Source: Patescibacteria group bacterium (GTDB taxonomy: Bacteria > Patescibacteriota > Patescibacteriia > UBA2591 > JAQUPP01). Taken from it: a DNA stretch of 64,000 bases. The position numbers and the translations under genes are program-made. The stretch lies in assembly GCA_028716665.1 (NCBI GenBank), contig JAQUPP010000001.1, positions 555,073-619,072 on the forward strand. Direction: 5' to 3'. This document shows positions 3,001 through 58,200 of this stretch, in pieces (the stretch's first letter is position 1; each line of letters opens with the position of its first letter). Under the pieces are notes generated by a model. The model did not search any database and was not told the origin of the DNA. It saw only the letters and a program-made list of their open reading frames with translations.

Positions 3001-6000
3001 ACCGGCAATCTTTCTTTAACAGGCAACAGTTATGATGTTAAGGCAAAAGTTCAGGGCAGCAAAACTTACGCTTATGTTGGAACAGATCAACTCGGACTTC
3101 AGATTGTAGACGCGACTACGCCGGCCAGTCCTACATTGGCGAACTCGGTTAATATTGGAAGCAATATTTATGGAGTTGAGCTTAACAATAATTATGCTTA
3201 TTTGGCCAGTGATACCGGAGGTTTAAATATCGTTGCTATTGGTGGGACAAATGGTTCGGATTCTGCGCAAGAATCTTCTGATAATGAAACTTTTCCATAT
3301 AAAAAATCAATTGCTTTGACCGGAGCCGGCGACGCCAGTACGAATTATCAAATTATGGTTAAGGTCGGTTATAGCAGCGCCGCAACAGGAGTAAATTTAA
3401 CGTGTTCCGGTAATTGTCAAGCCGATTTTGACGATATCAGATTTTATGATAATGACGGTGTGACAGAACTTGATTATTTTAAAGAAACATACACTTTGGG
3501 TGATAAAGCCACTTTTTGGGTGGAAGTAAAAGATAGTTTGTCCAGCGGACAAAACCCGACCATATATATGTATTATGGCGACAATGATGCCAGCACCACT
3601 TCCAGCGGCGCCAATACTTTCCCGTTATTTTTTGATGATTTTACCGGCACAACAATTGATACCGGAAAATGGAGCGAAACAGATACATCCAGTAAAATCA
3701 GTCAAAGTGATAAAATTGTTGTTACCGGCGGCGCGGGTTGGGGAAATACCAGTTTATACAGTGTGAGTGATTTTGCCAGAGCTGATAATTTGGAATTATT
3801 ATTTGATTATAAACCGACTGGCGGAACTTCTGTAATGTTTGGTTGGAAAGATAGCACTTCCGGCAAGAGCTATACGGATTTAATTTATTCTTTCTATGAT
3901 ACTAGTGATACAAATCGTATTTACGAAGACAATGGTGACAGAGGACAATTTTCCGGTGGTTGGATCGCCAATAACACTTATAAAGTCAGAATGCCGTTGA
4001 AAACCGGTGGCGGAGCAAAATATATGCGCAGTACTGATGGCGGACGAACATGGGTATTAAATTATGATTCTTCGTATTCCACTGAAGCGACTGAAAAAAT
4101 CGGTTTTATTAATTCTGATGCTGCTTATGAGATTGATAATGCTTTTATTCGTAAGGTTTCTTCTGCTGATCCGAAAATAAATAATTATATTTATAATGCC
4201 GGCGGTTCTGATTTAACAGAGCAAGCTTCGGGTAACGGAGATTTTCCATACAAAAAAACCATTGGTTTATTGGGCCAGGGTGATGCGGGAACGAATTATC
4301 AAATTGAAATTAAAGTTGGTTATGCTCCTACAACCAATGGAGTTAATTTAAGTTGTTCCAGCCATTGCCAAACTGATTTTGACGATATCAGATTTTATGA
4401 TAATGATGGTACGACCGAATTGGATTATTGGCGAGAAACTTATACTGCTTCTGATCAGGCCACTTTTTGGGTAGAAGTTAAAGATAGTTTGTCAGACGGT
4501 GAAAATCCGAATATTTATATGTATTATGGAAATGAAACGGCGGATACCGCTTCTAATTCCGCTAATACTTTTACTGAAACAAATCCTGACACATTTGATG
4601 TGGGAAGCTGGCACATGGAAGAAGGTTCTGGATCTACTACTGACGATGCTTCTGCTAATAGTAATACAGCCACTATTAATGGCGCGACATGGACTTCATC
4701 TGGGAAATTCGGGAACGCGCTAGACTTTGATGGAGCTGATAATGTCAGTGTTCCTTCAAGTTCTGAATTAAGCCCAACAGACGCGATTAGCGTGGAATTT
4801 TGGATTTATCCAAAGGGTCGTTATTCGGATTGGGGAAATATTATTTATAAATCAGGCAGTTATGGTCTTAATTGGGAGGGTTGGAATGCAAGAATGAGGT
4901 GGACAATAGGCGCAAGTTGCGGCGGCAGTTGGGGTGGAGGAGGTCTCCCCACTTTAGCCTATAATACCTGGACTCATGTCGTGGCCACTTATGATAAAAA
5001 TTTACCCAGCAATCAGATGAATATGTATTTTAATGGTGTTGTTGGCGAAACTTTAACCTGTACTAATGCTATTCCTGTTAATTCCAATGCTCTTGTAATG
5101 AAGATTGATAACAATATTCCTGTGGATCAATCAGAAAGATTAGATGAAGTAAAAGTTTATAATCGTGCTTTATCTGCCGATGAAGTTTCATCTTTATATA
5201 ATTATAACTTAATTAGAACTCGTAAGTCTTCTTCTGTTGATCCGGAAGTGGCTAATACTATTTCACCGTTTACACCCGAAATAATCAGTTCTTTTGATAC
5301 GCCGGGTAATGCTTGGGATGTGAAAGTGAAAACTATTGGCGCTGTAACTTATGCTTTTGTGGCAGATTATTCCGGCGGCGGATTAAGAATTATCAATGTA
5401 ACCGATCCTGCCAATCCGGTTGAAGTTTCATCAATCGGTTCCGGAAATACTTTTAGATCAGTTGATGTTGTTGGTAATTATGCTTATTTGGCTCTTGAAG
5501 GCAGCGATCTTTATATTTATGATATTTCCAATATAGCTGTTCCTTTTTTTGTCGGTAATTACAGTATAGTAAATTATGAAGCTTACGATATACAAGTTAT
5601 CAGTAATTATGCTTATTTGGCTAACAGACAAGGAGGTTTGTATATAATAGATGTCAGTAATCCGTATCGGCCGGGCATGGTCAGTCAATATAACACTTAT
5701 CCGGATTATACTTGGGGGTTGATTGTTGAAGGGGACTACGCTTATTTGGCTACTTATACTACTGGTTTAAAAATAATTGACTTAGGTGATTTATCACCGC
5801 CGGTTCAAGTTTCAACTACAATGGCAGTTGGAATTAGTAATGCTCAAGATGTGGCGGTTTCCGGTAATTATGCATATGTGGCGGAATACAATTGGGGATT
5901 AATAGTTATTGACGTCTCAAGCACAAGTACACCAAGCATTGTCGGGTCAGCTCAATCTTTTGGTAATCCATATGCTATTACAGTGGACGGCGATTACGCG

Positions 6001-9000
6001 TATGTGGCGAGCCAGAATAGAGGTTTGGAAATATTTGACATTTCCGATCCGACAGCGCCGATTTTAACCAAATCTTATATTTGGACGGGCAGCGGTTCGG
6101 TTTATGATATTGAAGTAATTGGCAATTATGCGTATCTTGCCAATTATACTTATGGTATTAAAATAATTGATATTACTGATAAATATAATCCACTTTTAGT
6201 CGGCAGTGCAGGCGTAAGTGGAAGCGCAGCCGGTATTGATATACAAGGTGATTATGCTTATGTCACAGACTATGGTGCTTATATGCATATTTTTAATATT
6301 TCCAATAAAACTTCGCCGCAATGGATAAGCAGTTATAATATTACCGGAGGTCAAGGCTTGGTGTGGAGAATAGCTGTTTCCGGCGATTATGCTTACGTGG
6401 CTGACAAAGGATATAATTTATATATTTTTAATATTGCCGACCCATATAATATCGCGCTTGTCGGCACTCTTGATTCTGACATATCAGGACAGAGTGACAG
6501 GGGTGCTTTAAATCTTTTTGTCAGCGGTACGCGTGTTTATATTGCGGATTACACTCGCGGTCTGCAAGTAATTGATATCAGCGATCCGACTGCTCCTTAT
6601 ATTTTATCTTGCATTGACAGAGTTAAAGATAATCAATTGTGGGCTGGAGCTTATTTTGGCGGAGTTATATCTGTATCTATCTCCGGACATTATGCTTATT
6701 TGATTGACACTTTAAGGGGTCTTTGGATTGTTGACCTTGATCAATTATCAGAAACACCGGCAGTGAATACTGCCAGTGGCGGTTATGTGACAGATATAGA
6801 AGTGCAAGGAGATTATACTTATGTTTTGGCGAATAGCAGTGCCGGGAGCGGTTCAACGGCATTTTCTGTTTTATCAATTTTTGATACCAGTACCAATCCG
6901 GCCACTTTAAAGAGTCGAATAAAAATTTATGATGCTTTGGGGATAACGGTCAGTGGTAATTATGTTTATGTGGCAAATCTTGGCAAGGGATTATTAATTA
7001 TTGATGTTTCAAATAAATCTGCTCCGCAGGGAGTCGGCGTTTATGATTCAACCGGTTCTACTTATGACGTGGCGGTCTCAGGAAATTATGCATACTTGGC
7101 GGATTATTCCGGCGGATTTAAAGTAATTGATATTTCTACTAAAACCAGCCCGGTTTATAAGACAGTTATTAATACAGGTGTCGCAACCCAGAGAGTTCAA
7201 GTAAAAGGCAATTATGCTTATGTGACTGATGCCACTACCGGTTTTCATATTATTAATATTACCACCCCCACTTCGCCTTCAGAAACAGGTTCAACTTTAC
7301 CGGTCAATGCTCATTATGACTTCTTTGTTGAAGGAAGTTATGTTTATGTCGGCGACAATACATCGGGTCTAACAATATACAACATTTCCAATCCGGCCGC
7401 GCCTTATTTGGTTGGTACTTATGATACCATGGGTAATGTTTATGACGTAAAAGTTTCCGGCGGATACGCTTATATCAGCGATTATGGCGGCGGACTTTTA
7501 ATTTTGGATGTTTCAATTCCTTCATCGCCGGCTTATGTTGGTAACTACATCAGCAAAAGCTCAACTTACAGACTTTTTGTCAAAAGGAATAAAATATATT
7601 TGGCTACGCAATATCACGGCGTGGAAGTTATAAATTTAAAAACACAAAATTCAAACGTTGTTTCAACCGGACTTGATACTTTGGCTGCTCCGATTTTAAA
7701 AGGTTCTTTAACCGCCACTGACACTGAGCCGACCGGCACTTCTATTACTTATTATTTAAGTGTTGATAACGGCACTACTTGGGAGGCAATTACGCCTGAT
7801 GGCAGTGAATATACTTTTACCGCTTTTGGTTCTGATTTAAAATGGAAGGCGGTTATGACCACTGATGATTCAACAATAACTCCAACTATTTCTCAAGTTG
7901 TAATTTGGGCTTCAACCGGAATGAGCAATACCGGTTATCTTATTTCTTCGGTTTTTGAGCAAAAATCTCCAAATTTTGCTTGGGAAACCATAGAATGGAC
8001 TGACAACGAAATACAAACTACAAGAGTAAAAGTTCGTACTGACGAGACTGCCGATATGGCCACAGCCACGACTTGGACAAATTGTCCATACGCGGTAGAC
8101 GAAGGCGATCTTGGCGATTTATCTTCTGTTTCCTCAACTCAACCTTATATCCAATATCGTCTTGAATTCGCCACTTCGGATATTGATGAAACTCCGATTC
8201 TTAGCGATATTGATATAACCTCAGCGGTTTATGCCACCGCGACTTATGATTATAGTCAAACTAATCCGGTTGGTTGGTATCACATTGATTGGGTTAATTC
8301 CGGCGGCACAGACACGGCTGTAAAAGTTAGAACTAAAGAAGCGGATACTCAAGAAGGATTAGACGATGATACTTGGAGTGATTGGGTAACTACCAGCGGC
8401 CAAGATATCAGAGAAATGGCCAGTCCGACAAAATGGATCAGGCTTGAAGTTCAAATAGAAACAAGAAAAAATAATGTTTCACCGATTCTGGAAAGTTTAA
8501 GTCTTTTTTACGCGGTCAATGTTACGCCAACAGTCTCAGAAATTTCGGCTCAGGAAAACGAAAATGGAGTGGTTCAAATTTCTTATACAGTTTTAGACGA
8601 GGACAGTGATAGTATTAGCACAACTTTTCAATATTGGGATGGTGATTCTTGGGAAGATTGCGATACCACTACGGGTGAAGGCAGTCATGATGTCACTCCG
8701 GGTTTGCAGACAGAATTAACCGGCACGTGGAATGTAAAAACAGATTATAATAATCAATATCTTGCCAATTCTCGCATTAAAATTATTATTGATGACAGTT
8801 CGCCTTATTTAAATCTTGGCGAAGATCAATCTACTACTTTTGTAATTGATACGAAAAAACCGACTACTCCGACTTTAAGTATTAACTCAGGCGCAGCGAT
8901 TACCAACTCTTTGTTTGTAACTTTAACTCCGGCTTGTGTTGATGACAGTGATTTAAAAGTTCAGTTTTCCAATGATGATTTAACTTATGGCACGGTCACC

Positions 9001-11928
9001 AATGTTGAAGGCGTGATAACTAATTCCGGCGAATGGGAGGCCAAGAGTATTGGTAAAAGTTGGATAATGAAAGCAATTGACGGCAGCACAAGAACAGCTT
9101 GGTTTAAATGTAAAGATATTTATGGCAATCAATCCGATACCGGCGGTTCGGCGACCATTAATTACGATACAGGTTTGCCCGGAGTAGTTGATAATGTCAG
9201 TATTGCCGATGCGTCAAATGAATATGTAGAACGTTATGCGTTGACTATTATGTGGGACGCTCTTAGTACTGAAGACAATCCTGATTTTTCAGCTTACAGT
9301 ATTGAGAGATCAACTGATGGTGTAACTTATTCACCGGCAGCCAGTATAAGTGATATCACCACTTCTGTTTATACCAATATCGGTCTTTCCAAAGATATTA
9401 CTTATTTTTATCGCATTAAATCAAAAGACACGGCTGATAATTATTCTTTACCTTCAAGTGTGGTTTCTTATCAACCGGCTTCGGAAGACGATATTCCCCC
9501 GGCTTTAACCGGCGGCTCTCCGGTTGCTACTTCGCACGAAGATTATGCCTTATTCACTTGGGCGACTGATGAACCTTCTGATTCTCACGTGGAATATGGA
9601 ATTATTTCCGGGACTTACACTTCCATGCAAGGTAATGACACTCAAACTGTTTCTCATTCAGTTCAGGTTTATGGATTAAATCCTTTAACCACATATTATT
9701 ATCGTATCAGATCCAAAGATGCCTCTGGTAATCCTTTGGTTTCTCCGGAATACTCTTTTATTTATTGGCCCCCTGAACTTGACGACATTCCATCTATTTC
9801 CGGAGAACAAGCTCAATCTCCGTCGGCTGTTGGCACTGAGGTAACTATTACTTGGATTACTGACAAATATACCACCAGTCAAGTTTACTATGGTTCGACT
9901 CAAACCGGAACTTGTGGAGAACTTAGCAGCTATACCACGGAAGATACAACTTTAAATAAATCGCATACCGTTTTATTAAGAAGTCTTCCTTATGACACTA
10001 CTTATTACTATTGCACACGTTCCAAAGATACTTACGATCATATCACTTGGGGAAGCATGAGAAATTTCACTACTGAAGCAGAACCAAGTCCGGATGACAC
10101 AACCGCTCCGGTTATTTCTGAAATCAATTCGTATCCCACAGAAACGCTTTGCACGATAATTTGGACCACTGATGATTCCGCCAATTCTCAAATTGAATAT
10201 GGTTCAACCACTGCTTACGGAACTTCAAGCACTCTTGATTCAACTTTAACCGCCAAACACGTGGTTCGCTTGACTGATTTAACCACTGAACAAGTTTATC
10301 ATTATCGAATCAAATCAAAAAATGCGGCCGATCTTGAAACCGTTAGCCAGGACTATACTTTTACTCCTCAATATGTTTCTCAGGAAGTAAGAGTGATTAA
10401 TGCAGGAGGAGGAGGCAGCGCAGCTGTCCCGACCAAAGACACAACTTCTCCGGTTATCAGCAACATATCTGCGTCTTCAATCAGCGACAACAGCGCCAAA
10501 ATTTCTTGGACTACTGATGAAAATGCCACCAGTCTAATTAGCTATGGTTTAACCACTGATTACAGTAATTATGTCTTCAGTGATATGACTAGCTTAATCA
10601 CTTCGCATCAAATCACTCTTTCCAATTTGACCAAGTCCACCGTCTATCATTATCAAGTCCTATCTCAAGACGCTTCGGGTAATCTTGCTCAAAGCGCTGA
10701 CGCCGTCTTCACCACTTTAAGTGTATCGGGTGGAACCACCCCGACTCAGGAAACCACGCCTGAAACTCCGGTTACTCCGGAAACACCGGTTGAACCAACA
10801 ACACCAATTGAACCGACTCCAACTCCTGTTACCGCCATAGATCAATCTTTTGTCACGGCCATGGAAGCAGCCAGACAAATCTCCACTCAAGTTACCGGAC
10901 CGGTTCTTGAAACAACTTTCCAGAATTTCTTGAACACTTTGAAAGACATCACGCCGGGTTTGTCGCTTGAAGCAGCTCCTGAGATTGAGATCTCAGCCAC
11001 TGACGCGATTATCAAATGGAAAACAAACAAACGTTCCAACTCTCAAATCGCTTTTGCCAAAGTTGCCGATTACGACGACACCAAATCAGAACCATATTCG
11101 CAAATTGTTGGCCAATCAAATGAGAAAGAATTAAATCACAATGTTAAAATTATCAACCTGACTCCTTCCACCGATTACTATTTCCAAATTCGCTCCAAGA
11201 GCATTATCGGTTCAGAAGCAAAATCAAAAAGATATACTTTCACCACGGCTTCGCAATTGCCCGAAGTGACTAATTTCTCCATCAAAAATATTTCTGAGAG
11301 AGCAGCCACTTTTGTTTGGCAGACAAATATCCCGACTGATTCGCAAGTGAAATTCATCCCTTATCGCAACAATGAACTGGCGGTGGGCGAAGCCCAGACT
11401 GTCAGCAAATCTGATTTCAATGTGGCTCACGAAATCGCAGTCAAGAATCTTGAACCGGGCACGACTTTCAATGTTTCGCTTGAAGGAAAAGATTTGCAGG
11501 GCAACAACTATTCTTTCCTGATTCCAAACTTCACCACCACCAAAGACAAAAATGCGCCAATCATTTCGCAAATCAGAACCTCAATCGCTTTGTCATCAAG
11601 AGGCGATGAAGTCCAGACCATTATTACTTGGAATACCAATGAACCTTCAACCTCGCAGGTTGAATACCAGGTTGGATTTGGTGAGGATGCTCCGACTGTC
11701 CAAATGACCGAAGATATCAGTTTGAGACAAGAACATTTAATGGTTATTACTTCGTTTAAACCCGGATCCATTTACAGATTCAGAGTCATTTCTGAGGATT
11801 CTTCGGGCAACAAAACTCAATCAACAACCAATACTTTACTGACTCCTCAAAAGAGATTGACCGTAACCGAATTGATTTTCCAAAACTTCCAACAGACCTT
11901 CGGATGGATGAAAGGATTGGGTAAATAA
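1..11928 (+). CDS. Giant surface protein, 5'-truncated by the window edge (frame open from nt 1; track start 184 is an internal Met). About 25 LVIVD-type beta-propeller repeats, two DUF2341-like modules, a LamG/ConA-like lectin domain, a second LVIVD block, a long Fn3-like array, a Pro/Thr linker, and a conserved C-terminal three-Fn3 module plus tail.
   Basis: Frame 1 has no stop from nt 1. Repeated 'GNYAYVAD..GL.I.D.S.P..P' units match LVIVD repeats. 'DIRFYDNDG..ELDY..ETY....ATFWVEV..L....NP.IYMYYGN' appears twice (DUF2341-like). 'LDFDGADNVSVP...ISVEFWIYPKG...WTHVVATYD' is LamG-like. Many 'YYYRI(R/K)SKD..GN' Fn3/PAP-N-like units. The C-terminal 600 aa are near-identical to ORF2 and ORF3. Confidence 0.8.
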   Translation, partial: AGQVGLSKPEETITENFSSTTKRDAAQTTADWNSGTNELTLKKTITPRIVGTYDTPATAYDVAISGNYAYVVDYNQGLEIFDISTPSTPILKSKLTSVMDAYGITISGNYAYIAGNDWGFWIVDISNPLSPTLVKRYYPWGSNTLKVDVLGNYAYIAHGGEGLRIVNITDRSNPSETGFYDTTGSCYDVKVRQVGGNIYAYVADGAPGLLIFDVTNPASPVLLDTLDTENARDVYVSGDYAYVSDGNYFRILDVSTPSDIKEKSIIDTLDGTEGIDVSGNRAYLASHSYGVQIIDITDKSNPSKISMVDTPQYLTDANNSAYQVAVSGNYAYVANGNNIGLVVIDVSEPFSPNFSESLKTLSDSQGVYVSGDYAYMAEGYQGLHIYDITGDTPSYVGSYDTPGYARDVYVSGDYAYVTDSDWGLQIINISIPSAPSFVSWYNTPGTAYQVVVDGDYAYVIDATTLQIINISNKALLTLTGSYNCPDNAYGLDKVGNYVYVTGYGQNPSFSAVNVTNPASPTLAGSYNGSEYGNQAYDVKVKTVGASTYAFLASYNYGFQVLNITNLGSISRATYLYSTETSYGIRLFLSGNYAYLANERGGLEVIDISNPAAINRQQKIDVPDYVMDVMIDGDNAYMAARSSGLQKVNITRPASLSSTPTSDYGREVFVSGNYAYMAEETNSSLSIFDITDKTAPVFLSNKDLAGTYCNDVKVVGSYAYVSCYDAGLYIVDVSDPANPVYKGVYNTPSYAYEVIVDGSYAYVADYTTLQIINISDPTNPTLTGSYNCSDYAYYLDKVGNYVYITSYNQNPNLTIVNVTNPASPTLAGSLYQNDRQLNGIKVNGSYAYVAYSAASGGVAVYNISNPASISKTGQWGLNDSTTNSSFITYSNNKVYLSAGTGGLHVVDVTTAATPAYVGTFDTTNTVRGSYISGNYLYFSDYIGGLKILDISQTMGAPTLEGSLDTPGNSYRLDKLGDYAYVADYSGDLRIINVSNPASPSATGNLSLTGNSYDVKAKVQGSKTYAYVGTDQLGLQIVDATTPASPTLANSVNIGSNIYGVELNNNYAYLASDTGGLNIVAIGGTNGSDSAQESSDNETFPYKKSIALTGAGDASTNYQIMVKVGYSSAATGVNLTCSGNCQADFDDIRFYDNDGVTELDYFKETYTLGDKATFWVEVKDSLSSGQNPTIYMYYGDNDASTTSSGANTFPLFFDDFTGTTIDTGKWSETDTSSKISQSDKIVVTGGAGWGNTSLYSVSDFARADNLELLFDYKPTGGTSVMFGWKDSTSGKSYTDLIYSFYDTSDTNRIYEDNGDRGQFSGGWIANNTYKVRMPLKTGGGAKYMRSTDGGRTWVLNYDSSYSTEATEKIGFINSDAAYEIDNAFIRKVSSADPKINNYIYNAGGSDLTEQASGNGDFPYKKTIGLLGQGDAGTNYQIEIKVGYAPTTNGVNLSCSSHCQTDFDDIRFYDNDGTTELDYWRETYTASDQATFWVEVKDSLSDGENPNIYMYYGNETADTASNSANTFTETNPDTFDVGSWHMEEGSGSTTDDASANSNTATINGATWTSSGKFGNALDFDGADNVSVPSSSELSPTDAISVEFWIYPKGRYSDWGNIIYKSGSYGLNWEGWNARMRWTIGASCGGSWGGGGLPTLAYNTWTHVVATYDKNLPSNQMNMYFNGVVGETLTCTNAIPVNSNALVMKIDNNIPVDQSERLDEVKVYNRALSADEVSSLYNYNLIRTRKSSSVDPEVANTISPFTPEIISSFDTPGNAWDVKVKTIGAVTYAFVADYSGGGLRIINVTDPANPVEVSSIGSGNTFRSVDVVGNYAYLALEGSDLYIYDISNIAVPFFVGNYSIVNYEAYDIQVISNYAYLANRQGGLYIIDVSNPYRPGMVSQYNTYPDYTWGLIVEGDYAYLATYTTGLKIIDLGDLSPPVQVSTTMAVGISNAQDVAVSGNYAYVAEYNWGLIVIDVSSTSTPSIVGSAQSFGNPYAITVDGDYAYVASQNRGLEIFDISDPTAPILTKSYIWTGSGSVYDIEVIGNYAYLANYTYGIKIIDITDKYNPLLVGSAGVSGSAAGIDIQGDYAYVTDYGAYMHIFNISNKTSPQWISSYNITGGQGLVWRIAVSGDYAYVADKGYNLYIFNIADPYNIALVGTLDSDISGQSDRGALNLFVSGTRVYIADYTRGLQVIDISDPTAPYILSCIDRVKDNQLWAGAYFGGVISVSISGHYAYLIDTLRGLWIVDLDQLSETPAVNTASGGYVTDIEVQGDYTYVLANSSAGSGSTAFSVLSIFDTSTNPATLKSRIKIYDALGITVSGNYVYVANLGKGLLIIDVSNKSAPQGVGVYDSTGSTYDVAVSGNYAYLADYSGGFKVIDISTKTSPVYKTVINTGVATQRVQVKGNYAYVTDATTGFHIINITTPTSPSETGSTLPVNAHYDFFVEGSYVYVGDNTSGLTIYNISNPAAPYLVGTYDTMGNVYDVKVSGGYAYISDYGGGLLILDVSIPSSPAYVGNYISKSSTYRLFVKRNKIYLATQYHGVEVINLKTQNSNVVSTGLDTLAAPILKGSLTATDTEPTGTSITYYLSVDNGTTWEAITPDGSEYTFTAFGSDLKWKAVMTTDDSTITPTISQVVIWASTGMSNTGYLISSVFEQKSPNFAWETIEWTDNEIQTTRVKVRTDETADMATATTWTNCPYAVDEGDLGDLSSVSSTQPYIQYRLEFATSDIDETPILSDIDITSAVYATATYDYSQTNPVGWYHIDWVNSGGTDTAVKVRTKEADTQEGLDDDTWSDWVTTSGQDIREMASPTKWIRLEVQIETRKNNVSPILESLSLFYAVNVTPTVSEISAQENENGVVQISYTVLDEDSDSISTTFQYWDGDSWEDCDTTTGEGSHDVTPGLQTELTGTWNVKTDYNNQYLANSRIKIIIDDSSPYLNLGEDQSTTFVIDTKKPTTPTLSINSGAAITNSLFVTLTPACVDDSDLKVQFSNDDLTYGTVTNVEGVITNSGEWEAKSIGKSWIMKAIDGSTRTAWFKCKDIYGNQSDTGGSATINYDTGLPGVVDNVSIADASNEYVERYALTIMWDALSTEDNPDFSAYSIERSTDGVTYSPAASISDITTSVYTNIGLSKDITYFYRIKSKDTADNYSLPSSVVSYQPASEDDIPPALTGGSPVATSHEDYALFTWATDEPSDSHVEYGIISGTYTSMQGNDTQTVSHSVQVYGLNPLTTYYYRIRSKDASGNPLVSPEYSFIYWPPELDDIPSISGEQAQSPSAVGTEVTITWITDKYTTSQVYYGSTQTGTCGELSSYTTEDTTLNKSHTVLLRSLPYDTTYYYCTRSKDTYDHITWGSMRNFTTEAEPSPDDTTAPVISEINSYPTETLCTIIWTTDDSANSQIEYGSTTAYGTSSTLDSTLTAKHVVRLTDLTTEQVYHYRIKSKNAADLETVSQDYTFTPQYVSQEVRVINAGGGGSAAVPTKDTTSPVISNISASSISDNSAKISWTTDENATSLISYGLTTDYSNYVFSDMTSLITSHQITLSNLTKSTVYHYQVLSQDASGNLAQSADAVFTTLSVSGGTTPTQETTPETPVTPETPVEPTTPIEPTPTPVTAIDQSFVTAMEAARQISTQVTGPVLETTFQNFLNTLKDITPGLSLEAAPEIEISATDAIIKWKTNKRSNSQIAFAKVADYDDTKSEPYSQIVGQSNEKELNHNVKIINLTPSTDYYFQIRSKSIIGSEAKSKRYTFTTASQLPEVTNFSIKNISERAATFVWQTNIPTDSQVKFIPYRNNELAVGEAQTVSKSDFNVAHEIAVKNLEPGTTFNVSLEGKDLQGNNYSFLIPNFTTTKDKNAPIISQIRTSIALSSRGDEVQTIITWNTNEPSTSQVEYQVGFGEDAPTVQMTEDISLRQEHLMVITSFKPGSIYRFRVISEDSSGNKTQSTTNTLLTPQKRLTVTELIFQNFQQTFGWMKGLGK
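10075..11928 (+). repeat. Conserved 3' gene module, copy 1 of 3, inverted relative to copies at 53355..55200 and 61368..63210. Encodes Fn3-like domains plus the C-terminal tail.
   Basis: Protein stretches such as 'FTTASQLPEVTNFSIKNISERAATFVWQTNIPTDSQVK' are 100% identical between ORF1 and ORF2. Spot nucleotide comparison of 11236-11350 against the reverse complement of about 53940-54060 gives roughly 90% identity. Boundaries are approximate. Confidence 0.7.
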
Positions 11929-11948
11929 ATCTTAAAATAAAAAATATA

Positions 11949-12356
11949 ATGTATTTATTAATTAATAATTTGGAAGAAAGCAGAAATTATTTGGCTTTAA
12001 TAATGGACAAGTCCGCGAAAAAATATTTTTTTTTAACTTTGAAAAACAAAAGAGGACAAGACAATAATATTTTGAAAGGATTGGACAATCTTTTATCAAA
12101 AGTAAATAAAAGATTAAAAGATATTAAGGGTATTATTGTTGTTAATGGTCCGGGCTCATTTGTCGGCATTAGGGTGGCCTTGTCAGTGGCGAATACTTTG
12201 GCTTGGTTGTTAAAAGTTCCCGTGGTCGGCCTTAAGAATGGAGAGAAATTTAATTTGATTAAAATCGGAATTAAAAAATTAAACAAGAAAACAAAAACAG
12301 TCAGGCCGTTTTATGGGAAACTGCCAAATATAAGCCAACCTAAAGAGTTTTGTTGA
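11949..12356 (+). CDS. tsaB: tRNA t6A biosynthesis protein TsaB (YeaZ)-like, short form of 135 aa
   Basis: 'IIVVNGPGSFVGIRVALSVANTLAWLLKVPVVGL' matches the TsaB/YeaZ N-terminal signature (GPGSFTGLR). It lacks the C-terminal half of canonical TsaB. Confidence 0.5.
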   Translation: MYLLINNLEESRNYLALIMDKSAKKYFFLTLKNKRGQDNNILKGLDNLLSKVNKRLKDIKGIIVVNGPGSFVGIRVALSVANTLAWLLKVPVVGLKNGEKFNLIKIGIKKLNKKTKTVRPFYGKLPNISQPKEFC

Positions 12357-29911: not shown

Positions 29912-31267
29912 TTAAATTTTTAACGATTCACCCAGAGTGTACATATATAATACGGTCTCCGGAACAGTCAGGATGGCGCTCCATTGATAACCCAAGGCGT
30001 CAAAAATTTCTTCAGAAGGGATAGGCAGGCGTTGTCCTTGAGTTATTAAATAAACATTCGGTTCATTGGCGGTTTTCACCAAGGTTCCGTCTCTGAATTT
30101 AACCGGTTCGCCATTTTTAAATTCGGTTAAGTATTTTGGTTCACTCTTAACAATATGAGAATAAGGGAAATTAACGTTTAAAATAGACTGATCAACAATA
30201 GGGTACTTTATGTCTTCTTCGACATAATAGACGCTTTTAGAGGCCTTATCTTGAAGCAGGGCGCCTGAAGGATAAGGAGTAAGTATCGGTCTTCCTTCTT
30301 TATAAGTTAATAAATCATTCGGTTCAACTTTAATAATTTCTTCCGGATTAAACCCGATAGCTTTGAATATTTTTTCTGAAATGGAACGTTTGACGCCGTC
30401 AATTAACATAAAAATTTCTCCGGTGGAAGCTTTGACAAGCGAGTAATTCGGGAAAGTCATCGGCTCACCGATTTCAAAATTTTTAAGTTCTTCAAGGCTC
30501 ACTTCTCTTACATTCTTAAAACTGTGATTAAGCAAGAAAACCGTCTTTGAATAAAATGGCCGTCGCTGGTTGTTTTGAATAAGCCAAATACCATTGTCTC
30601 CCTCAGCTTTTAAAAGTGTCCCATCGGCAAATTTAGATTCCGTTTTTTTAACAAACCATTTTTGCCAAATCGACCAAAATAATTTATTGCCGGTAACATA
30701 AGGCGTGTAATTATAAAGGGCGGCCGTGGCTGAATTTTGCGGACTTACTTTTTGATAGCTTATTCTATATGTTTGTCCGGCGCGATAAAAGAATTCCCAT
30801 GGATGCTCTATGAAATAACGCAGTCGCCAGGTGGCGCGATCAACTTGCGTGGCAAAACCGGAAAAACGTTGAACCGGTTTGCGATAATCGTAACATCCGA
30901 ATCCGGTCGCCCAATCGTATTGTGAAGATTTTTTTGGGGGCTGGGAAACAAGAGTTTGTTCTTTTTGGAGCACGGTAATGATAATTTGAGGATTAACTTT
31001 GTATTCTTGGGCGGCTCGATAAATTATTTCCGAAGCTAATTTTTTTTTGCCATCTATGTCCGTACATTGATATGTATCGAGCGTTCCGCCTGCATTTTCC
31101 AAGAATTTTTGAATTTCTTCCAAAGTCATGCTTTGATAATTAGTTAAGTCATAATCGGAAATGATGGAATTTGGATTAAAAAAAACTTCGGCCCGACATA
31201 TTAACGGCCAATTAAGACTGACTAAAACAAGAATCAATAAAACAGCAATTTTTTTTATAAAAGACAT
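29912..31267 (-). CDS. Secreted hypothetical protein (451 aa)
   Basis: Signal peptide 'MSFIKKIAVLLILVLVSLNWPLICRAEV'. No recognisable catalytic motif. Confidence 0.5.
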   Translation of the reverse strand: MSFIKKIAVLLILVLVSLNWPLICRAEVFFNPNSIISDYDLTNYQSMTLEEIQKFLENAGGTLDTYQCTDIDGKKKLASEIIYRAAQEYKVNPQIIITVLQKEQTLVSQPPKKSSQYDWATGFGCYDYRKPVQRFSGFATQVDRATWRLRYFIEHPWEFFYRAGQTYRISYQKVSPQNSATAALYNYTPYVTGNKLFWSIWQKWFVKKTESKFADGTLLKAEGDNGIWLIQNNQRRPFYSKTVFLLNHSFKNVREVSLEELKNFEIGEPMTFPNYSLVKASTGEIFMLIDGVKRSISEKIFKAIGFNPEEIIKVEPNDLLTYKEGRPILTPYPSGALLQDKASKSVYYVEEDIKYPIVDQSILNVNFPYSHIVKSEPKYLTEFKNGEPVKFRDGTLVKTANEPNVYLITQGQRLPIPSEEIFDALGYQWSAILTVPETVLYMYTLGESLKI

Positions 31268-31334: not shown

Positions 31335-32207
31335 ATGATGAATTTCAACAAAAAATCTATTTATTTTTGGGAGACCATTTTGTTTATTTTGACCCTAGGA
31401 TTGGGGATATCGGCTGTTTTCAGATTACGTTCATTTTTTACACCGGGCGCTGCCGGTATTCCACCGCTTAATATTTGGCACTTTATGGGACAATTCTTTT
31501 CAGTCACTTTATTTGTTTTTATCATTTCAATATTAGGCGCAAAAGCAGCTAAAATAAAAGACATAATATTTAAAACTATTTTTATTTTAGCTGTATTTTC
31601 GGGTGGATTTATTTTATTGAATTTATGGATGCCGAGTATTTTCGCCTTGATTTTAATAATTGCTTTGATTTTAGTTTGGTTAATCAAGCCGACGGTTTTA
31701 ATTCATGATTTGTCAGTGATTTTGGCAATATCAAGTATTGGCGCCATAATGGGTTTGGGATTTAAACCAATGGAAGTAATTGTGCTGTTATTGATTTTTT
31801 CCGTTTACGATTTTATTGCTGTTTATAAGACCAAGCATATGGTTAAAATGGCCAGAGAAATGATCAGGAGTCAAGCTATTTTGGGTTTTATTATTCCGTC
31901 AAATTTTTCCGCCCAAGGCGGATCGGCCTTGGGCGGAAAAGATTGGATGGAAAATTTAAAAAAAGTGGAACCTGGTGGAAATTTTTTAATTTTAGGCGGC
32001 GGCGATATTATTTTTCCATTGCTTTTGTGCGCGTCTTTGGCAGGAAGGGGGATTATGGATGTTTTGATCGTCGCTATCTTTGCTTTAATCGGACTTTTGA
32101 CAAGCTTTTGGATTTTTAACCGACAATCAAATCGTCAACCGATTCCCGCTCTTCCGCCCATTGCCTTATTTTCCATTATTGGATATTTATTAAGCTTGAT
32201 TGTTTAA
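31335..32207 (+). CDS. Presenilin / signal-peptide-peptidase family (A22) intramembrane aspartyl protease homolog
   Basis: Polytopic. 'FSVYDFIAV' (YD motif), 'LILGGGDIIFPLLL' (GxGD motif) and C-terminal 'QPIPALPPIA' (PAL motif) occur in canonical order. Confidence 0.5.
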   Translation: MMNFNKKSIYFWETILFILTLGLGISAVFRLRSFFTPGAAGIPPLNIWHFMGQFFSVTLFVFIISILGAKAAKIKDIIFKTIFILAVFSGGFILLNLWMPSIFALILIIALILVWLIKPTVLIHDLSVILAISSIGAIMGLGFKPMEVIVLLLIFSVYDFIAVYKTKHMVKMAREMIRSQAILGFIIPSNFSAQGGSALGGKDWMENLKKVEPGGNFLILGGGDIIFPLLLCASLAGRGIMDVLIVAIFALIGLLTSFWIFNRQSNRQPIPALPPIALFSIIGYLLSLIV

Positions 32208-32293: not shown

Positions 32294-32788
32294 ATGTGGT
32301 GGAAAAAAGATAAACAGGCAAAAGTTAATTTTTTGGCGCTTGATTTGGCCAAGAAATTGGCTCCCGTATTGGAAAAAAGACTCAATGAAATGAGTCAACC
32401 ATTTGAACGTTGTCCGGATGAATATGATAGTAAACAATATGGTTCAACCCCAGAATCACCATATACAGTTAGGGTGGAGAGTGGTAGTAATAAAAAAAGA
32501 TGCTTTGTGAGATTTGATATTAACCGAGGCCATATACCTGGTCATAGTTCCTATTTTATTTCGTTCGTATTAGTAGTATCTCTCTCTGACCCCTCAGATA
32601 TTGAACATAAACTTCAATACCTGGATGTTGCGGCCTATAAGGAAAAATTAGACCCAAGGGAGTATCAAGAAATAAGGAATATTTTAAGTGATTTTTTTGG
32701 TGGTAATTGGGAAGAACAGAAATACGATTCTTGCGGCGACAATGAGTATATAGATAAAAACACAAGAGAATTAGTTACGGTTTATTAA
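32294..32788 (+). CDS. Hypothetical protein (164 aa)
   Basis: Strong SD 'aaagggaggtaaag' followed by ATG, and a terminator immediately downstream. No motifs recognised. Confidence 0.5.
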   Translation: MWWKKDKQAKVNFLALDLAKKLAPVLEKRLNEMSQPFERCPDEYDSKQYGSTPESPYTVRVESGSNKKRCFVRFDINRGHIPGHSSYFISFVLVVSLSDPSDIEHKLQYLDVAAYKEKLDPREYQEIRNILSDFFGGNWEEQKYDSCGDNEYIDKNTRELVTVY

Positions 32789-32832: not shown

Positions 32833-32916
32833 TGGTATTGACAAAAGGCTGAATTTGTGTTATGTTTTTATTATATAAAGTTCTTTGATTCAAAAAATAA
32901 AAAGGAGGTGAGTAAT

Positions 32917-33378
32917 ATGGATAACAAAAATACAGAGGATAAAGAGAGAATTTCTCGTATGGCTACTCATGATTTAGTTGAAAAACATCATGAAGATATG
33001 AAGATTATCAGGGGATTATTCCAGAACTCTGCTTTATTGTCAAAAGAAGAGGGGAATAAACTGATTAATTTTTTTAACAGCATAACTGAATTTGAACAGA
33101 GAGCAGCTCTGATGGTTTATGTTCTAATGGAATTCAAATGGCGAGTTGAAAGTAAAATGGATGCCATTTCGGTAGATATTCACGGTGGAGATAAAAAACA
33201 AATAGAGGCGATCAGAGAATCACTTAAGCTATCCTCACAAAACACCGACGAGTTAGGAATCAAACTTACACGACATCTGGACGATTCATTACCGGATAAA
33301 AAATGCGAGTTAATGCTCACTATCTTGAGTGTGGCATTAAACGTAATACATAGAAACAAAAAAGGCTCAATTTATTAA
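32917..33378 (+). CDS. Hypothetical protein (153 aa). Start revised from the track's 32857 to the Met preceded by SD 'aaaaggaggtgagtaat'.
   Basis: A strong SD lies 8 nt upstream of ATG 32917. No motifs recognised. Confidence 0.45.
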   Translation: MDNKNTEDKERISRMATHDLVEKHHEDMKIIRGLFQNSALLSKEEGNKLINFFNSITEFEQRAALMVYVLMEFKWRVESKMDAISVDIHGGDKKQIEAIRESLKLSSQNTDELGIKLTRHLDDSLPDKKCELMLTILSVALNVIHRNKKGSIY

Positions 33379-53354: not shown

Positions 53355-55200
53355 TTATTTACCCAATCCTTTCATCCATCCGAAAGTCTGTTGGAAGTTC
53401 TTGAAGATAAGTTCGGTTACAGTCAATCTTCTCTGCGGAGTCAGTAAAGTATTGGTCGTTGATTGAGTTTTGTTGCCCGAAGAATCTTCAGAGATGACTC
53501 TGAACCTGTAAATTGAGCCCGGTTTAAAGGAAGTGATAACCATTAGATGTTCTTGTCTTAAACTGATATCTTTAGCCATTTGGATAATTGGAGTGTCATT
53601 AGCAAAGCCGACTTGATATTCAACTTGCGAAGTTGATACTTCATTGGTATTCCAGGTAATGATAGTTTGGACTTCGTCGCCTCTTGATGACAAAGCGATT
53701 GAGGTTCTGATTTGCGAAATGATTGGCGCGTTTTTGTCTTTGGTGGTGGTGAAGTTTGGAATCAGGAAAGAATAGTTATTGCCTTGTAAATCTTTTCCTT
53801 CAAGAGAGACATTAAAGGTCGTGCCCGGTTCAAGATTTTTGACTGTAATCTCATGAGTAATACTGGAATCAGATTTGCTAACTACTTGAACTTCATTTGG
53901 AGATAATTTGTTGTTGCGATACGGAATGTATTTCACTTGCGAATCAGTCGGGATATTTGTCTGCCAAACAAAAGTGGCCGCTCGTTCAGAGATGTTTTTA
54001 ATTGAGAAATTTGTCACTTCGGGCAATTGCGAAGCAGTGGTGAAAGTATATTGTTTAGATCTTGTTTCAGAACCGATAATGCTCTTTGATCGAATTTGGA
54101 AATAGTAATCAGTAGAAGGAACCAAATTAATAATGTTGACATTATGCGCTAATTCATATTCGCTTGATTGACCAACCACTTGCGAATACGGTTCTGATTT
54201 GGTTTTATCAAAATCAGCAACCTTGGTGATAGCGACCACACTATTTGCCTTTCTATCAGTCGTCCATTTAACTCTTGCTTCAGTGGCTGATATTTCAATG
54301 CCTGGAGAACCCTCTAATATCGGACCGGGAATAAATCCTTTAAAAATATTAGCGAGTTCTGTAAAACCATTTTCGGCAACAGACAAAGAAATAGTACTGG
54401 AAACTTTTTTAATCATTTCCATTGCCGTCGTAAATGTTTCTTGAGAAACTGTTTGTTCTTCAATCTTTTTTATCTCTTGCGCTTTTTCTTCCGGAGTTTT
54501 TTCCGCTTCCGGTTCTGTAATTTCTTCATTTTCTGTTATTTCCGGAACAGGAGGAATTACCGAACTTCCCAAAGTTGTAAAAATCAAATCAGCGCCTTGA
54601 GCGAGATTGCCGGAAGCGTCTTGGGACAAGACTTGATAATGATAGACAGTGGCTTTAGTTAAACCAGAAAGAATAGCTTGATGAGAAGTTACAAAAGATG
54701 ATAAACCGGCATGCTGAGTGTCAGTATAGGTTGAGGTTAAACCATAATCTATTAAACTATTTGCATTTTCATTAGTGACCCAGCTGATTGTGGCACTATT
54801 TTCAGTAATATTAGAAGTTAAAATATTGCTGATTATAGGGGTTGTTTTATCTATTAATGTTGCAGAACTGCCTCCTCCTCCGGCATTAATCACTCTTACT
54901 TCCTGAGAAACATATTGAGGCGTGAGAGTATAATCTTGGCTGACGGTTTCAAGATCAGCTGAATTTTTTGATTTGATTCGATAATGATAAACCTGTTCAC
55001 TGATCAAGTCGGTCAAACGAACCACATGTTCGACGGTTAAAGTTGAGTTCAAAGTGGTTGAAGTTCCGTAAGCAGTGGTTGAGCCATATTCAATTTGAGA
55101 AGTGGCCAAATCATCGGTTGTCCAGGTGATTGTGCCGATTGTTTCCGTGGCGTAAGAATTGACCTCGGAAATAACCGGAGCGGTAGCATCTACCGGCTCT
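53355..55200 (-). repeat. Conserved 3' gene module, copy 2 of 3
   Basis: See the copy at 10075..11928. Boundaries are approximate. Confidence 0.7.
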
Positions 55201-58200
55201 GCTTCTTGAGTGGTGATAAAATTATAATCGCCGGAAACACTTTCATTATCATTTGCGTCTTTAGATTTTACCCTGAAATGGTAAGTTCTGTCAGTGGTCA
55301 AATCTGTTAAGTGAATAACGTGTTGAATGGTTAATTGAGAATCAAGATCGGTTTCCGTGCCATAATCGGTGGTAGTTCCATATTCCAATTGGCTGGTTGA
55401 TAATTCATCTGTTTCCCAAGTAATAGTGGAAGTGTAAGCGGTGGCGGATGAATTAACTAAAGAAATTACCGGATCAACTTGATCATCGGCGGTAGTAAAA
55501 TAATAATAACTGCCTTGATTATTATCTTTAGCTGTATTTTCTGAAACATCTGTTGACTCAACATAAAAATAATAAATTACATTCGGATAAAGACCGGTTA
55601 AATTTATAACATGAACAGTGTTTAAAGTTTCATCTGTTTCTTGCTGAGGATTGCTTAAATTTGAAGTAGTGGAATAAACCACTTTGGAATCAGAAGCTGT
55701 ATCAGTAAGCCATCTGACGGTAACTTTTTCATTTACGACGGAAGAAATAATAACATTGGAAATAATCGATCCGGCTTTAGTTATAAACGAATAATCATTG
55801 GACTTAGTTGTTTCATTTTCGGCCGCGTCTTTTGATTTAACCCTGAAATAATAAGGAGTATTTTTAGATAATCCGGTTAGAACAACCGAATGACTTGTTA
55901 CCATTGAAGTGGAATTTTTACTTAAAGAATAAACTCCCGGAGTGGCCGAATATTCCACGGTGGAATCGGACAATTCGTCAGTGGTCCAAGTAATAGTCGC
56001 TTGATTTGTAAAAATAGAAGCGCTTGGCACTTCAGGAGTTGAAATAGTCGGACCGGTTAAATCTCCTTCGCGGGTTGGAGTAAATGTATAATCCGCGGAA
56101 ACGCTTTCATTATTATTCGCGTCTTTTGAATAAACTCTGAAATGATAAGTGGAACCGACAGTCAAACTGCTTAATTTGATAACGTGATCAATGGTAAGGT
56201 CGGTTGTTGTTACCGAGGACGGACTTAAAGTTCCGTAACCATCCGTCAAACCGTATTCAACCTGGCTGGTGGCCAATTCGTCAGTTTCCCAAGTAATAGT
56301 GGAAGTGTAGGCCGTGGTAGACGCGGAAACTTCATTAATAATCGGCGGAGTCAAGTCATAGGTGGTATTAAAAAAATAATAATCAGAGGCATTGTCATTA
56401 ATGCCGAGATTGATAGAAATATCATAAGATTTAACATAAAAATAATAGCGAGTGCCGGGCGTTAAAGAAGAAATTTCCACTGAATGTTCATAATAATCTT
56501 CGCTGTTCGGAGTAAGAACTCTGGTTTCCGTGCCATGCGTTAAAGAACCGGATAAATCTGAGCTGGTGGAATAAACAACATAAGAATTTGAAGAAGTATC
56601 CGTGAGCCAAGTAATTTTTGCCGTACTATTATTAATTTGAGAAACAGAAACATTTGTCAAAGTTGGACCGGGAAGTGTCGTAAAAGTATAATAAGCATTG
56701 GAATGATTATCAACGGTTTCATTATTGCTTGGATCTTCTGATTTTACCAAAAAATAATATGGAGTGTCTTGCGTTAAACCATTTATGGTAAGAGAATGCG
56801 ATGTTCCCATGGTCGGAAGATTGACATAAGTAAAAGTTTCTAAAACTTCAGACGTGGAATAACCGACCGTTGAATCCGAAAATTCATCCGTTGTCCAAGT
56901 TATAGTTGCTTGAGAAGTATAAACATCAGTAGAAGTAACATTGGAAACAGTCGGCGCCGTAATATCAGTGCCTCCCCCGCCTTCACCGGAATCTTGAATG
57001 CCATTTGCCTTGCCGGTAATGGCATTGGAACGATAAGAAATATTATTTAAAGAATCATAAGCGATAATTTTATAATAATGGAGAACATTATAATCCGGCG
57101 TAGTGTCCGTATAATAATTGGTTGTCTTAACATTAACCGTGCCGACTTCCGTAAAATCAGCGTCATTAGTAGTATTTGAACGCAAAATGGAATAATGATC
57201 AAATATTCCTTGAGGCGGATCATCTATTACTTCCCAGGCAATAAAAAGCCGATATTCATTGGGCGTAATTCTGACATTTGAAGTGTCTTGGGTCATAATG
57301 CATGCCGGAGTTGCCGGAGTAATTACTGACGCAGTGGCGGAAACATTTCCTTTGGCGTCTTTAAATTTAACATAAACAGTATCCGGATTATCAGCCAAGG
57401 TGATTGTTGAAGCAGTGTTGTATGTTTGATAACTTGCGCCGGAAAATCCGCTGTCCAAAGAAATCATCATAGAGCCCTTGACGCCGGATTGCATCGTGCT
57501 GTCGGTGGCAGACAAGGTTAAAGTTGCCGCGTTAGAACCGTATTGTGTTGAAGCATTAACTTTAATACTTGGGCTGGCCGGATTTATTGTGTCTAATTCA
57601 AAAGTTGAAGATTCCAAAGTGGCGGTGTTGTAAACCAATTCAAGATCATTGGCTGTAACTTTAATTTTCATTCCATTGGCAGTGTATTGATTATTGTAAT
57701 CTGTTTTTGGATCCCAAGTGCCGGTGTAAGTCGTCCAATCAGTAGCCGGAGAAGTAGCCACATTTTTTACTCCTTCACCGGTTGTAGTCGTTGCTTCTTG
57801 CCATTCATCTCCATCCCAATATTGAAAAGAAATTGTTGCTTTGCCCTGATGGGCTTCTTCACCATCATTGGTATCAGTATCGCGGACTTGATATGAAATA
57901 TTTACCAAGCCATCCGCGCCTTGCGAAGCAGTTAAAGTTTGAAGTTCAGGAGAAGCATTTATTGAATAACTGACAGTAAAATCGTTAATTGTCGGACTTG
58001 TGCCGTCAATCGTACTTTCTAAATATGCTTCTGCTTCGCACCAGCGATTAATTCCTGAAGTAATATCGGCCGGAGAAGAAGTGTACCAATCTGACCATGA
58101 AGCTCCGGATAAACCGCCTTCAGTGGCAGCAGTACGAGTTCTGAATTTAACCAAAGTACCGGAAGGAACAGTCGCGTTCCAAGAAATTGTATTCCAACCG

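Follow-up and report, generated by a model that had tools for sequence, protein, structure and literature searches.

The papers we searched treat presenilin-type intramembrane proteases as a eukaryotic and archaeal family, and a gene with the motifs of such an enzyme in a bacterial contig raises the questions of whether it belongs to this family and on what its product might act. The gene lies at the centre of a 64-kb stretch of DNA (64,000 nucleotides, hereafter the window) from contig JAQUPP010000001.1 of a Patescibacteria group bacterium (assembly GCA_028716665.1). Our analysis indicates that it very probably encodes a stand-alone intramembrane aspartyl protease of the presenilin-homologue (PSH) type (MEROPS A22, PF06550), belonging to a Parcubacteria-like Patescibacteria bacterium. 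This family identification is supported by sequence profiles, fold, motif conservation and the bacterial host, and every test run agreed. The protease is a bacterial relative of presenilin and a real but ordinary find, apart from a 30-bp palindromic insertion, which is the most unusual thing seen in the gene.

Family assignment of the protease

No rival long open reading frame (ORF) was found at 31335..32207, where the protease frame starts with ATG and codes for 290 residues. The translation confirmed the coordinates, the forward strand and the order of the YD, GxGD and PAL motifs given in a preliminary description of the locus: V157-Y158-D159-F160, L220-G-G-G-D224-I-I-F-P-L-L230 and I270-P271-A272-L273-P274-P275. 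Pfam PF06550 'SPP' (signal-peptide peptidase, presenilin aspartyl protease) was the one significant Pfam family on the protein, with an E-value of 5.4e-21 and 75.8 bits (gathering cut-off 23.9 bits), and the match covered residues 53-289, equivalent to model positions 41-279 of 283. In the same Pfam scan PF01080 (presenilin) was unmatched, as was PF04258, the eukaryotic signal peptide peptidase (SPP) model, even at E<=10; many archaeal PSHs, many of them from Methanomicrobiales, do match PF04258, whereas members from the candidate phyla radiation (CPR) do not. The only real match of phmmer among PDB sequences was the PSH of Methanoculleus marisnigri (4hyc and related entries, E 2.2e-10), in a register that pairs YDFIAVYKTKHM with YDAISVYRTKHM, GGGDIIFP with GMGDLIMP and PALPPI with AGLPPL. 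Comparison of 30 close CPR homologues (alignment A1) with 19 archaeal PSHs (alignment A2) using hhalign returned a probability of 98.9% and an E-value of 1.5e-17 over 172 columns, equal to transmembrane helices 4 to 9 (TM4-TM9). The motif set and the profile matches are far beyond chance.

An AlphaFold2 (AF2) model built on A1 had a predicted local distance difference test score (pLDDT) of 88.5 and a predicted template modelling score (pTM) of 0.87, and gives the protease nine predicted transmembrane helices in a presenilin fold. When the model was compared with the PDB using Foldseek, all 21 matches with a probability of at least 0.98 were PSH, presenilin-1/2 or SPPL2a, and the next match had a probability of 0.18. 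In the model, D159 lies inside TM6 (helix 145-166), D224 at the start of the adjacent TM7 (helix 222-234) and the PAL motif immediately before TM9. By phmmer and hhalign, D159 aligns with D162 of PSH, a candidate catalytic aspartate (PMC2947513), GGGD224 with GMGD220, and PAL with A-G-L-P-P. A hydrophilic cavity with the two aspartates on opposite sides of it is only implied, by superpositions of the model on SPPL2a and PSH (2.3-3.1 Å). The preliminary description had proposed an A22 homologue with its catalytic aspartates in transmembrane helices, and both points are upheld by the profile, PSH and fold matches and by the conserved motifs; the significant A22-type profile is PF06550, and not PF04258 or PF01080.

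Residue conservation was counted in an alignment of 260 full-length family members. Y158 is kept in 257 of these and D159 in 258, G221 and G223 in 258 each, D224 in 257 and P228 in 256. Within the PAL motif, P271 is kept in 226 members (Ala in 31), A272 in 254 and L273 in 257, and the following P274 again in 257. Measured against the 81%-identical orthologue of the closest relative (locus L001; 279 codons), the nonsynonymous rate (dN) is 0.08 and the synonymous rate (dS) 0.53, giving a dN/dS of 0.15. The protease gene is thus under purifying selection; it is also intact, and its length is complete by the standard of the family.

The archaeal PSH (MCMJR1 of M. marisnigri; PDB 4HYC, 4HYG, 4Y6K), with 301 residues against 290 here, has PF06550 in common with the bacterial protease and resembles it in its nine transmembrane helices, short TM6-TM7 loop and predicted orientation with the N-terminus inside and the C-terminus outside (N-in/C-out), and the bacterial protease is presumably likewise active alone. 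In both, the YD of TM6 is followed by (K/R)TKHM, GxGD starts TM7, and a PAL-type motif with PP precedes TM9. Identity is only about 20-22%, however, and the archaeal enzyme has A-G-L-P where the bacterial protease has the canonical P-A-L-P. The bacterial host and a near-invariant Glu13 in TM1 (31371-31373; motif W-E-A-F-L-F) also set the protease apart from archaeal PSH. All 30 close homologues have this glutamate, as do 198 of the 260 family members, and no alignable counterpart was seen in archaeal PSH.

The window is bacterial: it encodes methionyl-tRNA formyltransferase (Fmt; TIGR00460, 317 bits against a cut-off of 201.5) and a glutamyl-tRNA synthetase (GluRS) scoring 550 bits on the bacterial model versus 106 on its archaeal counterpart, as well as YchF and a peptidoglycan peptidase of the M23 family. 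No tRNA or rRNA genes and no Rfam families were found in the 64 kb. The best protein match of the protease is a partial copy with 100% identity (P0001), to which NCBI gives the name 'presenilin family intramembrane aspartyl protease, partial [Patescibacteria group bacterium]'; further matches come from Nealsonbacteria, Paceibacterales and Parcubacteria, and relatives carry the JGI label 'presenilin-like A22 family membrane protease'. A scan with two family-specific peptide patterns, using one genome per GTDB species, gave confirmed loci in at least 566 species-representative Patescibacteria genomes, the best 80 of which were inspected (L001-L080). Names among these 80 include Parcubacteria/Paceibacterota, Nealson-, Staskawicz-, Yanofsky-, Azam-, Uhr- and Falkowbacteria, as well as 'bacterium isolate'. 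An exhaustive profile search, run on 1.84 billion cluster representatives, yielded 1,503 clusters with E<=0.001, and 265 with E<=1e-30. CPR bacteria thus commonly carry the family, and annotation pipelines already recognize and name it. The literature search found no paper linking presenilin homologues with CPR or Patescibacteria, and returned only gut-microbiome/Alzheimer papers or nothing. The view that such proteases are sparsely described in bacteria therefore holds for the papers searched and fails for the databases.

Some of the inspected loci carry other labels: L075, L078 and many of L002-L071 are named 'uncultured Candidatus Saccharibacteria bacterium' or 'uncultured Gammaproteobacteria bacterium' on automatically named assemblies, with protease genes of the Parcubacteria type. 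The two 'Gammaproteobacteria' loci have 34-43% GC and the same linkage of RtcB and protease as elsewhere. Because of this low to moderate GC content and the shared linkage, the 'Gammaproteobacteria' labels look like placeholders; so do the 'Saccharibacteria' labels, and neither is suited to taxonomic conclusions.

Membrane orientation, possible role and rival explanations

Lysine and arginine are distributed very unevenly over the protease, with 17 in the N-terminus and loops 2, 4, 6 and 8 versus 2 in loops 1, 3, 5 and 7 and the C-terminus. The family means for the same two sides are 20.1 and 2.4 (260 members), and M. marisnigri PSH has the same pattern. Because of this distribution, the positive-inside rule predicts a cytoplasmic N-terminus and TM6-TM7 loop and an outside C-terminus, which would be the presenilin/PSH orientation. 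The topology of SPP appears opposite, and this may relate to presenilin cutting type-I and SPP type-II membrane proteins (PMC2947513). By this rule, the predicted orientation disfavours signal-peptide remnants as substrates and, by analogy, would favour type-I membrane stubs. From what is understood of the family, the two aspartates would activate water in a membrane-embedded cavity, and the peptide bond would be hydrolysed within an unwound transmembrane helix of a substrate entering laterally. The enzyme would work alone, with no partner subunits and no loop autoproteolysis, like the archaeal PSH; purified MCMJR1 acts alone (PMC2947513).

The protease has the YD/GxGD/PAL catalytic architecture of the SPP and SPPL proteases (A22B, PF04258; human SPPL2a, PDB 9K92/9K93), which are single-subunit enzymes. 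With no PF04258 match, an identity of ~18% and a predicted inverted orientation (N-in, with the loop cytoplasmic by the positive-inside rule), it falls outside the eukaryotic SPPs, and the luminal protease-associated domain and endoplasmic reticulum-retention signal of the SPP/SPPL family are not found in it. To presenilin-1/2 of gamma-secretase (A22A, PF01080) it is similar in predicted orientation and in its catalytic motifs, including PALP. Its predicted strands 184-188 and 217-221 occupy the place of the hybrid beta-sheet that presenilin-1 builds together with its bound substrate (PDB 6IYC/6IDF), and both of these structures were among the Foldseek matches. The protease differs from the presenilins in having no PF01080 match and no long hydrophilic loop for endoproteolysis: the GGGD motif follows the end of TM6 after ~50 residues, a spacing too short for a presenilin-type endoproteolytic loop, and the protein also stands outside the gamma-secretase presenilins. 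Nicastrin, APH-1 and PEN-2 are not expected in bacteria, and such partners were not searched for in the 64 kb of genome analysed here.

As to the role in the cell, we tentatively put forward, by analogy, that the protease may clear or process single-pass stubs in type-I orientation (N-out, C-in), for instance what remains of C-terminal anchors, and not signal peptides. Several points weigh against the combined assignment and role. TM1-TM3 lie outside the profile-profile alignment with archaeal PSH, and the NCBIfam model NF041679 (PSH equivalog) gave 83.1 bits, under its 125-bit cut-off; since the score is below this NCBI threshold, the protease, to judge from its sequence, is a clear PSH homologue but a divergent one, with no equivalog status and a probable place in a separate bacterial subfamily. 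The preference for type-I substrates draws only on the positive-inside rule and the presenilin/SPP analogy, and no type-I candidate substrate was seen within the window. The inspected loci offer no informative conserved neighbour, biochemical evidence exists for no bacterial member, and a physiological substrate is known not even for the archaeal PSH (PMC2947513; PMC9263693).

A signal peptide peptidase in the eukaryotic sense, clearing the type-II (N-in) remnants left by signal peptidase after export, was the role first suggested for this gene, and we consider it unlikely. The name of the Pfam family ('Signal-peptide peptidase, presenilin aspartyl protease') would suit it, several secreted or very large surface proteins are encoded in the window, and PSH-type enzymes are not strictly selective in vitro, MCMJR1 having cut unrelated transmembrane domains (PMC2947513). 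The Lys/Arg counts nevertheless predict the orientation opposite to that of SPP, with orientation tied to substrate type in the way described above (PMC2947513), and PF04258 is unmatched in this protease even though many archaeal PSHs match it. No gene for export or proteolysis is a conserved neighbour among the 80 loci, and neither a Sec nor a signal-peptidase gene was seen in that position. The structural match to SPPL2a reflects a shared fold and the modelled conformation, and says nothing on orientation. That the presenilin fold has been kept for something other than primarily proteolysis, as a scaffold or as a cation-leak channel of the kind proposed for presenilins, is very improbable. 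The lack of demonstrated activity in any bacterial member and the foreign 10-residue insertion in the TM6-TM7 loop of this copy would fit such a function, but the retention of the aspartates, GxGD glycines and PAL residues in ~99% of the 260 members is hard to explain without catalysis, the dN/dS is low, and the insertion is confined to a disordered loop away from the catalytic helices.

There is next to no likelihood that the gene is archaeal, for example from the DPANN, and owes its place in the window to mis-binning or mis-assembly. It is true that archaea are the best-known source of the family, the NCBIfam model is named for them, and CPR bacteria and DPANN archaea share habitats. Yet the same contiguous window codes for Fmt, a bacterial-type GluRS, YchF and an M23 peptidase; the L001 orthologue keeps three of the flanking genes; about half of the other 79 loci have Mur ligase and other genes of a recurrent block beside the protease in genomes named Patescibacteria; and the CPR sequences are only ~20% identical to archaeal PSH. 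Type IV pili are common in CPR bacteria, which could speak for a pilin-maturing enzyme of the type IV prepilin peptidase/FlaK-like kind (MEROPS A24). A24 enzymes also use a GxGD aspartate (PMC4985597). Such an identity is scarcely credible and was rejected, as no Pfam A24 model matched at E<=10 and presenilin/SPP is what the YD and PAL motifs, the nine-helix fold and every significant structural match indicate. A stand-alone PSH-type protease in a predicted presenilin orientation remains our preferred assignment.

A palindromic insertion in the TM6-TM7 loop

The protease is 10-11 residues longer than orthologues of 81-84% identity, and the difference is one block in the disordered TM6-TM7 loop. 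In L001 the empty site reads AAT TTT|AGA GAT, and the window has exactly 30 extra bases there (TCC GCC CAA GGC GGA TCG GCC TTG GGC GGA), which keep the reading frame. The insertion is missing from the other 259 aligned family members and is otherwise found only in the 100%-identical partial copy. It falls in the only low-confidence, disordered part of the AF2 model, away from the catalytic helices. The inserted DNA is GC-rich in a genome of 35% GC and, as RNA, would fold into a hairpin of -38.8 kcal/mol (z -7.4), the stem being lengthened by flanking T and A runs. The window holds a single copy.

A metagenome scan with the two 11-nt arms and any 6-nt centre found the arms in at least 120 contigs, and 80 of the loci were inspected (L081-L160). 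The perfect 28-bp palindrome CCGCCCAAGGCGGATCCGCCTTGGGCGG is present in 62 of these 80, with T-CCGCCCAAGGCGGATCCGCCTTGGGCGG-A as the canonical element; the flanks of different loci are mostly unrelated and usually begin with T at one end and with A at the other. The 30-bp element is free of stops in all three frames, and its length is divisible by three. A stop-free stretch of at least 150 codons surrounds it in 53 of the 80 loci, and ~45 of these 53 use the single frame that reads SAQGGSALGG. The hosts are unrelated housekeeping proteins, and NCBIfam confirms NifS, FolD, MurB, LigA, PyrG and alanyl-tRNA synthetase (AlaRS), the latter with two different sites; in FolD the block stands between DVDGF and HP. 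An exact look-up named the hosts as Candidatus Magasanikbacteria, Candidatus Nomurabacteria and Patescibacteria group bacterium. In a cluster of AlaRS sequences at 90% identity, two members have the block and four full-length members lack it, the site being otherwise conserved, and a histidyl-tRNA synthetase (HisRS) cluster also has members of both kinds. The genes for AlaRS, LigA, PyrG, MurB, FolD and HisRS are examples of essential genes among the hosts. A related copy at L071:4397-4424 keeps the palindrome perfect through compensating changes in both arms, and several loci have a second, degenerate copy nearby. A scan of viral contigs gave 0 copies, a protein search with a synthetic peptide query containing SAQGGSALGG gave no match at E<=10, and the literature search found no paper with the palindrome sequence or its peptide and nothing relevant on palindromic in-frame elements in CPR.

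An assembly or linker artefact was considered for the palindrome and rejected: the insertions are exactly 30 bp in collinear genes, they occur in proteins from independent projects, and they are biased to one frame. We read the palindrome as a short element that either inserts into coding DNA or persists there, and the ten extra residues of the protease are most likely a tolerated passenger in the loop that tolerates insertions best. The closest analogues are the Rickettsia palindromic elements, likewise short palindromic repeats dispersed in a reduced AT-rich genome. Those elements sit in frame in housekeeping genes and add a peptide segment to the protein. The 30-bp palindrome, a single perfect hairpin, is far shorter than the Rickettsia elements (roughly 100-150 bp). 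It differs from repetitive extragenic palindromic (REP) sequences and REPINs in being mostly intragenic instead of extragenic and in having none of the GTAG/CGTC end tags that REPs carry (PMC3733652). Unlike both the Rickettsia elements and REPs, it is nearly unchanged across candidate phyla (Magasanikbacteria, Nomurabacteria and the organism studied here).

Genomic surroundings and meaning of the locus

The neighbours of the protease in the window are LemA, a LigB/Memo-like protein, a 451-residue secreted protein, two orphan ORFs, a GT2 glycosyltransferase, GluRS and the M23 peptidase (coordinates of the main features are given in Table 1). Among the 80 loci, this type of neighbourhood is common only to the closest relative, L001. 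About half of the other 79 have a different, recurrent block (L002-L080, position ~6001), in which the protease is preceded, on its own strand, by Mur ligase, RtcB, DUF763 and NIF3, with NIF3 or DUF763 often abutting or overlapping its start codon. Downstream of it Elp3 is encoded on the opposite strand, and genes for a methyltransferase, a small EF-Tu-domain-2-like protein and an SLOG protein are close by. The window and L001 have lost this arrangement. The divergent gene for the 451-residue protein (29912-31267, reverse strand) encodes an N-terminal signal-like helix, has no Pfam/NCBIfam match and stands beside the protease in L001 only, at 90% identity. The two ORFs just downstream of the protease (32294-32788, forward strand, 164 residues; 32857-33378, forward strand, 173 residues) also have no Pfam/NCBIfam match. 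A promoter and terminator scan around the protease gene found sites no more numerous than in shuffled sequence.

Table 1. Positions of the protease, its predicted structural elements, the palindromic insertion and the giant ORFs in the window
Feature	Nucleotides	Residues	Strand	Basis or remark
Presenilin/PSH-type GxGD intramembrane aspartyl protease gene (predicted)	31335..32207, stop codon included	290 aa	+	ATG start
TM1		6-35		AF2 model
TM2		47-66		AF2 model
TM3		69-98		AF2 model
TM4		101-117		AF2 model
TM5		121-141		AF2 model
TM6, first catalytic motif Y158-D159 (codons 31806-31811)	31767..31832	145-166	+	AF2 helix
TM6-TM7 region, predicted cytoplasmic	31836..31994	168-220	+	AF2 secondary structure, pLDDT; eight Lys/Arg
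Short helix after TM6 (TM6a-like)		168-178		AF2 model
Strand before loop		184-188		AF2 model
30-bp in-frame insertion TCCGCCCAAGGCGGATCGGCCTTGGGCGGA, S192-AQGGSALG-G201	31908..31937			Near-perfect GC-rich palindrome, dispersed element copy
Disordered low-confidence loop		193-198		AF2 model; pLDDT below 50
Strand after loop		217-221		AF2 model
G221-G222-G223-D224 (31995-32006) and TM7	31995..32036	222-234 (TM7)	+	Second catalytic Asp
TM8		240-263		AF2 model
PAL motif P271-A272-L273, directly ahead of TM9	32145..32153	273-289 (TM9)	+	AF2 helix
Giant ORF	184-11928	3914 aa	+	
Giant ORF	53355-61295	2646 aa	-	
Giant ORF at window edge	61368-63956	>=862 aa	-	

The preliminary description had also suggested that the protease could process anchors in an organism with giant exported proteins. 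The C-terminal 150 residues of the three giant proteins are 81-93% identical to one another and consist of an FN3/purple-acid-phosphatase-N-like domain and, after it, a conserved tail that is not hydrophobic, ...TPQKRLTVTELIFKNFQQTFGWMKGLGK (also given as ...TELIFKNFQQTFGWMKGLGK). No C-terminal transmembrane helix or hydrophobic anchor was found in any of the three. The giant proteins were rejected as anchored substrates, since without a hydrophobic anchor they are not obvious targets of an intramembrane protease, and the suggested role finds no support here. Their common C-terminal stretch could serve all three for attachment or sorting, or could stem from recent duplication or gene conversion. 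Two 2-kb bins, 10001-12000 and 58001-60000, have a GC content of 0.42-0.44 with negative GC skew, compared with ~0.33-0.36 over most of the window; both lie at or within genes for giant FN3 proteins.

As annotation, the protease is nothing new, given that public pipelines already name it. Its significance lies in distribution: a GxGD protease with a predicted presenilin orientation is no rarity in bacteria but a widespread gene, found in at least 566 species-level Patescibacteria genomes. A small, partner-free enzyme from very small proteomes is a possible tractable route to the first physiological substrate, and it could clarify whether the family's evolutionary origin lies in shared ancestry or in transfer between CPR and archaea. 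The broadest proposition, which we hold with belief and doubt in equal measure, is that an undescribed palindromic element spreads through, or is preferentially kept in, coding genes across several lineages of Patescibacteria and, separately, that the protease may do most of the clearing of membrane stubs in these bacteria, possibly acquired from or shared with archaea. If the palindrome is a mobile element living within genes, it would be a new case in which selfish DNA shapes the loops of proteins in reduced genomes, and in practice a reason for care when CPR proteins are aligned or their structures predicted. Should the proposition on the palindrome be true, CPR bacteria would have their own, much smaller version of the Rickettsia palindromic elements, one that remodels the loops of housekeeping proteins.

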